The translations under genes and the position numbers were made by a program. The notes below the pieces were generated by a model, which saw only the letters and a list, made by a program, of their open reading frames with translations, was not told the origin of the DNA and ran no database searches. From positions 1-11,259 of the forward strand of contig JBKJLC010000255.1 in the NCBI GenBank assembly GCA_046597055.1: a stretch of DNA of 11,259 bases, given 5' to 3'. Shown here piece by piece: positions 1,029-3,561 of the stretch; positions within the stretch are counted from its first letter, which is position 1, and every line of letters begins with the position of its first letter. Origin of the DNA: Kofleriaceae bacterium (GTDB taxonomy: Bacteria; Myxococcota_A; Polyangia; Haliangiales; Haliangiaceae).

Positions 1029-3529
1029 CAGTTGTCTCCGTCCGGGCCGAGGCTCGGGATGGTCACCGGCGGGGGCACCACCTTGAACGTGGTCTTGCGC
1101 TGGAGCTGGTGGCCCTTGCCGCCGCGCGCGCTCACCGACCGCGGCTCGGCGTGCTGCGGGAACGCCTTGCCGGCCGCGTTCTCGAGCTGGAGCAGCGTGG
1201 TCCGGTCGCCAGCGATGAAGCCGATCACGTGATCGTCGTCGTCGGTCTTGATCACGGTGACGCCGCGGCCGGCGCCCTCGAGCCTGGCGATCTCGTCGGC
1301 CTTGCAGTGGAGGACGTGGCCCTGCTGGGTCGCGACCACCACGACGTCCTTGTCGCGCACGCCGGTGACGCCGAGGACCTCGTCGCCCTCGGACGGCCGC
1401 GCGTAGCGCCGGCCGGCCTTGGTGGTCACCTCGGACTGCAGCGCGGTCGCGAAGCGCAGGCCGAAGCCGCGCTTGGTGACCGCCAGCATCGTCTCGGTCG
1501 GCGCCAGCCGTGGATCCAGCGAGATCGCCGAGACGATCCGCTCGCCGTCCTCGAACTTGAAGTACTTCTGGGCCGGGTCGCCGTAGCCGGTGGTCGCCGC
1601 GATGTCGTTGATCTTCACGACGAACGCGCGGCCGAAGTTGGAGAAGAAGACGACCTTCTCCTTGGTCGAGCCGGGCAGCACCGCGATGACCTCGTCGCCC
1701 TCGCGGGTGCGGGTCTGCTGCGGGTCTTTCATCTCGCGGACCCGCTTGATCCAGTTGTCGCGGGTGACCACCACGTTGGCGTCCTCGTCGACGATGAAGG
1801 CGTCCTCGTCGACCTCGATCTCCTCGGCGGCGCCCCCGGTCTTGGTCCGGCGCGGGGTGCCGATCGCCTCGGCGATCTCGCCGAGCTCGGTCTTGATCAC
1901 CGACCACAGCTTGTCGTCGCTCTTGAGAATGAGGCGGATCCGCTTGGCCTCGGCGTTCTTGACCGCCAGGTCCTCGCGGATGATGCGGATCTCGAGCTTG
2001 GCCAGCTTGTACAGCTTGAGCTCGAGGATCGCGTCGACCTGGATCGCGTCGAGCTCGAACCGCTTGATCAGCTTGCCGGCGGCGTCTTCCTTGCCGTCGG
2101 AGGCGCGGATGATCTTGATGGTCTCGTCGAGCGCGTCGAAGATCGTCGCGAAGGCCTCGAGGATGTGGATGCGCCGCTCGAGCTCGGCCAGCTCGTAGCG
2201 GAACCGGCGCCGGGTGATGTCGAGCCGGAAATCGAGGAAGTGGAGCAGGACCTCCTTGAGGCCCAGCTTCTGCGGTTGCGCCGGCGGCTCGGGATCTTCG
2301 TGGGTGGCGTCGTCCGGCCGTGGGACCGGGACCAGGCACGTGATGTTGAGGTTGAAGTTCTGCTGCAGCGGCGTGTGCTTGTAGAGGTACGCCATGACGA
2401 TCTGCGGATCGGCGTCGCGCTTGATCTCCATGACGATGCGGACGTCGGTGGTCGACTCGTCGCGCACGTCGAGCAGGTACGGCAGCTTCCGCGACAGGAT
2501 CACCTCGGCGATCTTCTCGACCACGCTCGACTTGGTCAGCGCGTAGGGGATCGAGGTGATCACGATGTCGGTGCCGCCGCGCTTCTTGTCCTCGAGCTTG
2601 TACTCGCCGCGGACCCGCAGCGCGCCGGCGCCCGCCTCGTAGATCTGGCGCAGCTCGGGCTTGGTGTTGAGGAGCTGGCCCCCGGTCGGGAAGTCCGGAC
2701 CTTGCACGTACTTCATCAAGTTCGTGGTGGTCAGCTCGCGATCGTCGATCAGCGCGATCAGGGCGGCGGTCACCTCGCGCAGGTTGTGCGGCGGGATGTT
2801 GGTCGCCATGCCGACCGCGATGCCGGTCGAGCCGTTGACCAGGAGGTTGGGATACCGGGCCGGCAGCACCTGCGGCTCGGTGGTGGTGCCGTCGTAGTTG
2901 GGCCGGTACGCGACCGTCTTCTGGTCGAGCTCGCGCAGGAGCTCGAGCGCGGGCGGGGCCAGCCGACACTCGGTGTACCGGTAGGCGGCCGGGGCATCGC
3001 CGTCGAGCGAGCCGAAGTTGCCGGAGCCGTCGACCAGCGGCAGGCGCAGGGTGAAGTCCTGTGCCATGCGGACCATCGCGTCGTAGACCGCGGTGTCGCC
3101 GTGCGGATGATAGCGGCCGATGACGGTACCGACGACCTTCGCGCTCTTGCGGTGCTTGGCGTCGGGTCGCAGGTGCTCGTCGTTGAGCATCGCGAACAGG
3201 ATGCGCCGCTGCACCGGCTTGAGGCCGTCGCGGACGTCGGGCAGGGCGCGCGCGGTGATGACCGACAGCGCGTAGTTGAGGTAGCGGCGCCGGGTCTCGA
3301 CCTGCAGCGAGGCGTCGTGGTCCTCGCCGGAGCCACCCCCGCCACCGTAGATGTCGGTGGGCGGCGTGGGCGGGGTGCCACCTTTGTTGCTCGAGCGGGC
3401 TTCCTTCAATGCGACGGCTTTCTTGGCCATGATGCGGGTCACGTGGGGCTCCGGCGGGGCCGGAGCGGAGGCGACCTTACTCGCCGCGGCGAAAAGGTCT
3501 AGCTGTTCGCGCGGATCTGGTGACTGCAC
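1028..3529 (-). CDS. parC: Type IIA DNA topoisomerase A subunit, ParC-like (833 aa from GTG 3529; 800 aa if started at ATG 3430)
   Basis: Motifs [39 protein letters not shown], catalytic [26 protein letters not shown] and GPDFPTGG, followed by a beta-pinwheel C-terminal domain. There is no QRRGGKG GyrA box at its usual place (reads [22 protein letters not shown]). GTG 3529 lies 7 nt downstream of a perfect AGGAGG Shine-Dalgarno. The upstream part of the 1393-aa track ORF is only the antisense of the M23 gene. Confidence 0.88.
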
Positions 3530-3561
3530 CACGAATCCTCCTCGCACCGGTGAGATCGGCT

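Follow-up and report, generated by a model that had tools for sequence, protein, structure and literature searches.

A sliding-clamp-type motif on the N-terminal extension of a topoisomerase IV-like ParC subunit in uncultured myxobacteria, with a predicted second start

Does a ParC-like subunit of an uncultured myxobacterium carry its own docking peptide for the replication sliding clamp, and is the protein made with that peptide, without it, or in both forms? The question is raised by a stretch of 11,259 nucleotides from a Kofleriaceae bacterium (hereafter the window), whose minus strand holds a parC-type gene. The first-pass annotation of this DNA had proposed that the gene begins at a GTG preceded by a Shine-Dalgarno (SD) sequence, 33 codons upstream of an ATG, that the added residues contain the pentapeptide QLDLF, and that the enzyme may thereby be tethered to DnaN behind the replication fork. 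In Escherichia coli, Topo IV is positioned through MukBEF and SeqA and is described as kept away from the newest DNA (available text of PMC11253446 and PMC7803763), its access to newly replicated DNA being presented as debated even there (PMC7803763, same portion). For Bacillus subtilis, recruitment of Topo IV is called poorly defined in the available part of PMC13220808, and in that of PMC12448304 its ParC is portrayed as distributed over the nucleoid. Unlike E. coli with its MukBEF/SeqA positioning, the host genome (94% complete) yielded neither MukB nor SeqA; SMC is present in it.

The host protein has the makings of a type IIA topoisomerase A subunit, namely the PF00521 core, the catalytic Tyr185 (in AAYRYTE) and a C-terminal pinwheel. 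Among NCBIfam models it scores 778 against PRK05561, over the cut-off of 654, and falls under the cut-offs of the equivalog models parC_Gneg (585 against 629) and parC_Gpos (553 against 813) and of the gyrA models. No canonical GyrA-box was found in the ParC-like loci tested, some of which are cut before the C-terminus, and the box is present in all 20 GyrA paralogs fetched as well as in the second copy in the host genome (G000:C301); its loss is given as a mark of Topo IV in the available text of PMC8216471. With no GyrA-box here and a canonical gyrase elsewhere in the genome, gyrase identity was rejected, and the earlier description of the subunit as ParC-like holds. We regard it as probably Topo IV-like, with a presumed decatenating activity, presumed because the equivalog models stay under cut-off and because solved GyrA chains are nearer to it by sequence than solved ParC chains. 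Among named records a Myxococcales MAG and a Kofleriaceae MAG come closest, and close homologs bear the NCBI name 'DNA topoisomerase IV subunit A [Kofleriaceae bacterium]'. Like known ParC (PRK05561; PF00521 with PF03989), the protein combines an Arg-Tyr core and a beta-pinwheel lacking the canonical GyrA-box with an adjoining ParE-type partner and a separate gyrase in the genome; it differs in its gene order, parC-parE, and in a low-complexity N-terminal arm that bears the clamp-type motif and a conserved second start. Features of the locus are collected in Table 1.

Table 1. Features of the parC locus in window coordinates, with motif-like tails from other operons in the last line
Feature	Position	Strand	Remarks
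parC-type gene, long form	1028..3529	-	833 aa from GTG 3529; stop codon 1030-1028; catalytic Arg184-Tyr185; no GyrA-box
Shine-Dalgarno GAGGAGGA, long form	3536..3543	-	read in sequence
Tandem in-frame GTG codons, long-form start	3527..3532	-	3532-3530 and 3529-3527
N-terminal extension, 33 codons	3431..3529	-	in frame with ParC core
Clamp-binding-type pentapeptide QLDLF, residues 9-13	3491..3505	-	CAG CTA GAC CTT TTC
Predicted -35 box TAGACC	3496..3501	-	within Leu-Asp-Leu codons; inferred
Predicted -10 box TAAGGT	3474..3479	-	16-nt spacer from -35; inferred
Second Met (MAKK), predicted short-form start	3428..3430	-	ATG; 800 aa; no SD
parE-type gene, 5' part	1..1028	-	start overlaps parC stop; cut by contig end
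Candidate long-form promoter TTGCCC-18-GAAGTT	3661..3690	-	top minus-strand matrix score within 3401-3800
M23 peptidase gene, conserved neighbour	3746..5143	+	divergent from parC
Motif-like C-tails QMALF, QGWLF, QNSLF, QGSLL	loci L362, L365, L366, L374		ParC C-terminus

The perfect SD reported ahead of GTG 3529 is there, 3 nt from the first and 6 nt from the second of the tandem GTG codons, of which 3529 is the better placed; the database gene call of 834 aa fits GTG 3532. An SD word likewise precedes the upstream in-frame start in 16/16 genomes of the host's genus and in 60/99 in the family. Translation of the 33 codons yields QLDLF exactly where it had been placed, and the linker described as Pro/Gly-rich belongs to a segment (residues 1-75) whose composition is rich in Ala, Pro, Gly and Ser. 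The AlphaFold monomer of the long protein has a low-complexity N-terminus devoid of secondary structure, within a part of low confidence that reaches about residue 250, so that the model is no demonstration of disorder. Upstream, the site at 3661..3690 may tentatively be taken as the promoter of the long form, and most of the host's genus has a TGnTA element ahead of the first start (it is degenerate in the host genome itself). The M23 gene and parC are divergent in 38/40 family loci with enough upstream DNA. On the M23 side, a TTGCnn-17-GAnnnT pattern was seen by eye inside the 5' end of that gene, and positions 3695-3726 upstream of it hold TTGCGC and the palindrome TGATATCA, a candidate promoter for the plus strand that overlaps the candidate one upstream of parC, in a region where a CGTGnTA element recurs across the family. 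Farther along the window, the minus strand carries an ECF sigma factor gene (9399-10031, within 7109-10031), then a likely anti-sigma gene, with two small Cys-rich lipoprotein-like ORFs sharing similar CxxxCxLAxxICxNA repeats after the sigma factor gene (the four ORFs downstream of it gave no Pfam match), and the tRNA pseudouridine synthase gene truA (10052-10960).

Is the extension a piece of protein? Homologs were re-translated upstream of the core, a check that the first-pass annotation had suggested, in 109 of the 131 family genomes with a match, and far from being absent among relatives the motif (QL[D/E/S/A]LF-type) lies in frame in 99 of the 109, although these kin are not independent, 64 of the 99 loci belonging to one genus. 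The variants are QLELF (64), QLDLF (32) and, once each, QLSLF, QMELF and QLALF; the ten genomes lacking a motif include one cut by its contig, one with QEALPF and one with a degenerate LEVFL. The distance from motif to core takes 42 different values between 52 and 120 codons, with no out-of-frame copy among the 99 loci, and an in-frame start lies within 30 codons upstream of the motif in every one. The Gln and Phe codons of the motif vary only synonymously (CAG 63, CAA 36; TTC 67, TTT 32), and the five codons before it vary chiefly at the third position (largest genus: 0.86/0.95/0.60). These patterns support protein-level selection on the N-terminal extension, and translation from the long start seems very probable. 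A chance match was rejected, given the family conservation and an expectation of 1.9e-5 for QL[DES]LF in a given 33-residue stretch; throughout the coding-like ORFs of the genome (about 3.2 million residues) the pattern was found 5 times against 2.1 expected. The motif is part of 85 of the 119 database homologs; one more reads QLVLF, and in 33 the gene call begins at the second Met or at a later one. No motif was found in the 20 GyrA paralogs, and control subunits from other phyla gave 2 weak pattern matches among 76.

The host pentapeptide matches, residue for residue, the strongest docking motif known for the sliding clamp. Two types of clamp motif have been published, the pentamer Q-phi-x-L-F and the hexamer Q-phi-x-L-x-L. 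Relatives carry hexamers such as QLDLPL, QLELPV and QIELPM, and this interchange of pentamer and hexamer matches both published types. The pentapeptides of the host family are those of the B. subtilis clamp clients Pol Y1 (QLDLF) and Pol I (QLELF), and the hexapeptides of its relatives match E. coli Hda (QLSLPL); what sets the present putative client apart from known clients with terminal motifs is that the carrier is a type II topoisomerase. The host DnaN (G000:C23) has the peptide pocket (T172, D173, G174, H175, R176, L177; F241, P242, Y244, V247; M364, P365, M366), whose residues are invariant in 27/27 sequences, and clamp-type motifs occur elsewhere in the host genome in DnaE (QTSLF) and MutS (QLSLL). 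From motif identity and conservation, we consider it likely that the ParC extension docks on DnaN. A further N-terminal QLDLF was noticed in the host genome in a protein beginning MPDLRPPGDQLDLF (G000:C239, 17274-18533, plus strand), which we take to be DUF72-like by its motif; that context much resembles the ParC extension in one genus (g8).

Outside the family, the loci considered are those that scored best among the matches in a draw of 200 genomes. Either the pentamer or the hexamer pattern is matched at 7/9 loci in the host's order, 21/28 elsewhere in the class and 12/62 elsewhere in the phylum; three of these matches look spurious (QRCFL, QHAML, QCYLL), 13 of the 16 class-level hexamers come from a single family, and the pattern for hexamers was defined with the data already in view. 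Some relatives start directly with the motif (MADQLDLF, MSDDQLDLF, MQLDLF), and among those that begin MADQLDLF some have no second start. With 10/109 family genomes and 50/62 phylum-level loci lacking it, the motif appears dispensable in many lineages. Four of 20 operons that lack an N-terminal motif have, by eye, a motif-like tail at the ParC C-terminus (Table 1); no motif was seen at the ParE termini in the loci read by eye. In a tree of 132 rows (230-275 core residues) motif-bearing sequences are spread across the two main branches, and the deep nodes are weakly supported. Three observations may be set beside these. A distant ParC-like subunit of 32% identity (L050, G059:C60) has a Lys-rich tail ending in QQTLF, which is clamp-motif-like. 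Two parC-parE loci in records named Rhodothermales and Bacteroidetes (L055, L056) fall, with weak support, within the myxobacterial ParC group, a placement for which transfer is possible. In two genomes of the largest genus (L034 in G029, L318 in G328) the motif is lost or degraded and the second Met kept, the former retaining the downstream PRQGA stretch that encodes a -10-like box.

The codons of the motif appear to serve a second purpose. In 89/99 loci a pattern nAnnnT is found at a constant distance from the Gln codon, 26 or 27 bases, while the residues encoded there differ (SKV, GQG, GMV, PRV, GHG, VQS), and 16-17 bases upstream of this -10-like box the Leu-Asp/Glu-Leu codons read TAGACC, TGGACC, TGGAAC or TAGAAC. 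The fourth residue, Leu, is encoded by CTT, rare in the core (3% usage), in 88/89 loci with the box and in 1/10 without it; since CTT travels with the box, the rare codons are best explained by an overlapping DNA element, likely a promoter. The first-pass annotation had offered rare codons as a caveat: the codons are indeed rare, but they track the DNA box, and a non-coding extension is not their best explanation. Patterns of the form TTGAC-16/17/18-TAnnnT are used in the host genome about tenfold more than expected (25, 23 and 19 against 2.4). Under a promoter matrix trained on host intergenic DNA and seeded on the sigma70 consensus, the internal site scores 9.6 (reverse strand, -1.0), where 594 coding windows have their 99th percentile at 9.2, and a single site on the minus strand outscores it, at 3690, ahead of the long start; a strict sigma70 scan (at least 9 of 12 matches) found no site. 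In the largest genus (64 genomes), where the -10 begins with C and the -35 reads TGGAAC, the forward score is 4.1, within coding background and no better than the reverse score of 4.9, and the strand is ambiguous. That the internal sigma70-like element functions as a promoter is the reading we moderately favour.

Such an element admits the view that there is a short form only, the extension being promoter or leader DNA and QLDLF a relic, or an accident of a -35 box and a T-run. The DNA-level constraint on the Leu, Asp/Glu and Leu codons is strong enough to invite it, as do the database proteins called from later Mets and a GC3 of 0.76 in the extension against 0.97 in the core; the boxes, however, do not include the Gln and Phe codons, whose variation is synonymous, the frame is kept across all 42 distances with no stop and always with an upstream start, a codon-phase pattern is seen upstream of the motif, and at 10 loci where the box is lost the motif peptide survives with its codons relaxed. 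We hold this view to be highly improbable.

Is the ATG at 3430, then, a start as well? As stated earlier it has no good SD, and relatives mostly agree, an SD word preceding the second Met in 4/99 loci. The Met itself is kept in 99/99 motif loci, Met making up 0.46% of the remaining linker; the search pattern behind this count demanded a small residue plus a Lys or Arg close by, and an unselected count agrees, with a Met in the linker of 85/85 motif-bearing database proteins (the invariant column M34). The residue after it is Ala, Gly, Ser, Val or Thr, the 15 bases downstream are rich in A (0.37; after internal Mets, 0.19), and its region is weakly folded (-8.9 against -16.9 kcal/mol per 50 nt). 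Where the box is present the Met keeps a distance of at least 14 codons, which puts it just behind the point where the transcript is predicted to begin; where it is absent, the Met stands 11-13 codons away in 4 of the 10 motif-bearing loci, all of which keep the Met. Family members without the motif have this same Met as their apparent start.

These observations bear on another account, by which only the long, clamp-binding form is made, the conserved Met belonging to a binding patch and the element being an RNA hairpin, a regulator's site or a promoter for the other strand. The boxes do form a perfect 6-bp inverted repeat (GACCTT/AAGGTC) in 16/16 genomes of the host's genus, but outside it most retain 2-5 of the 6 pairs, uncompensated, so that a hairpin, which may apply within the host's genus, is unsupported as a family-wide explanation, and the box retains its A and T although the bases between them vary. 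A reverse score equal to the forward one in the largest genus, and the 95/99 loci with no SD before the second Met, fit this account as well; against them stand the start-like context of that Met, the sharp lower bound on its distance behind the box, and the motif-less family members that appear to start at it. On balance we judge a long form alone unlikely and initiation at ATG 3430 probable. The first-pass annotation had treated a start at ATG 3430 as fatal to its proposal; as both starts appear conserved, such a start is no refutation, and that either/or was probably mistaken.

We therefore return to a Topo IV-type ParC with a clamp-docking QLDLF peptide, of which one gene would give a long and a short form, a reading to which we give about an even chance. 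The upstream promoter and the SD-led GTG would yield ParC-long, whose motif, on a low-complexity tether of about 60 residues, would hold the enzyme on clamps seated on newly copied DNA. Clamps linger behind the replication fork, and with ParC-long bound to them on fresh DNA, decatenation would be concentrated where precatenanes arise. From the predicted sigma70-type promoter within the motif codons, transcription would begin about 40 nt ahead of ATG 3430 and yield a ParC-short that lacks the motif, could not bind the clamp and would be available throughout the nucleoid or at the terminus; a mixed dimer of ParC-long and ParC-short would carry one motif. Two-length proteins from one bacterial gene are familiar from IF2, ClpB and CheA (long and short), which share nested in-frame starts and forms with and without an N-terminal module; here, unlike in those cases, the short form would come from a predicted internal promoter lying in the codons of the very module it omits.

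A role of motif-bearing ParC at the fork has, in our estimate, slightly the better of the odds. With both forms made, or the long one, the motif might instead serve clamp binding in termination or repair rather than in the removal of precatenanes at moving forks, or bind a partner other than DnaN; its presence is silent on timing, clamp motifs also occur in the host's MutS-like and DUF72-like proteins, and many lineages manage without it. Yet the interchange of Q-x-x-L-F and Q-x-x-L-x-L fits the DnaN pocket specifically, and the E. coli recruiters MukB and SeqA were not found in the 94%-complete genome; such other ends seem quite unlikely compared with docking on DnaN at the fork.

The feature is real, and it joins known parts, ParC and a clamp motif, in a new combination. 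In the literature searched, which included the available text of PMC5872134, PMC13220808, PMC11253446, PMC12448304, PMC11139829 and PMC12288472, no clamp motif was found to be reported for ParC; the words 'topoisomerase' and 'gyrase' are absent from the main text of the beta-clamp review searched. The predicted two-start arrangement is new here. One practical consequence is that gene calls beginning at the second Met leave the motif out, as in the 33 database proteins above. For this family of uncultured myxobacteria, the conserved motif offers a test, by mutation of two residues, of how Topo IV is recruited where MukB and SeqA were not found. More tentatively, and short of what we would call probable, the promoter-in-motif of the family may split Topo IV into clamp-riding and free pools and so set the amount of decatenase that follows the fork, and direct clamp tethering would then be a widespread, convergent means of recruiting Topo IV outside the bacteria that bear MukB and SeqA. 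If true, the two-start arrangement would be a compact means of tuning fork-bound against free enzyme.
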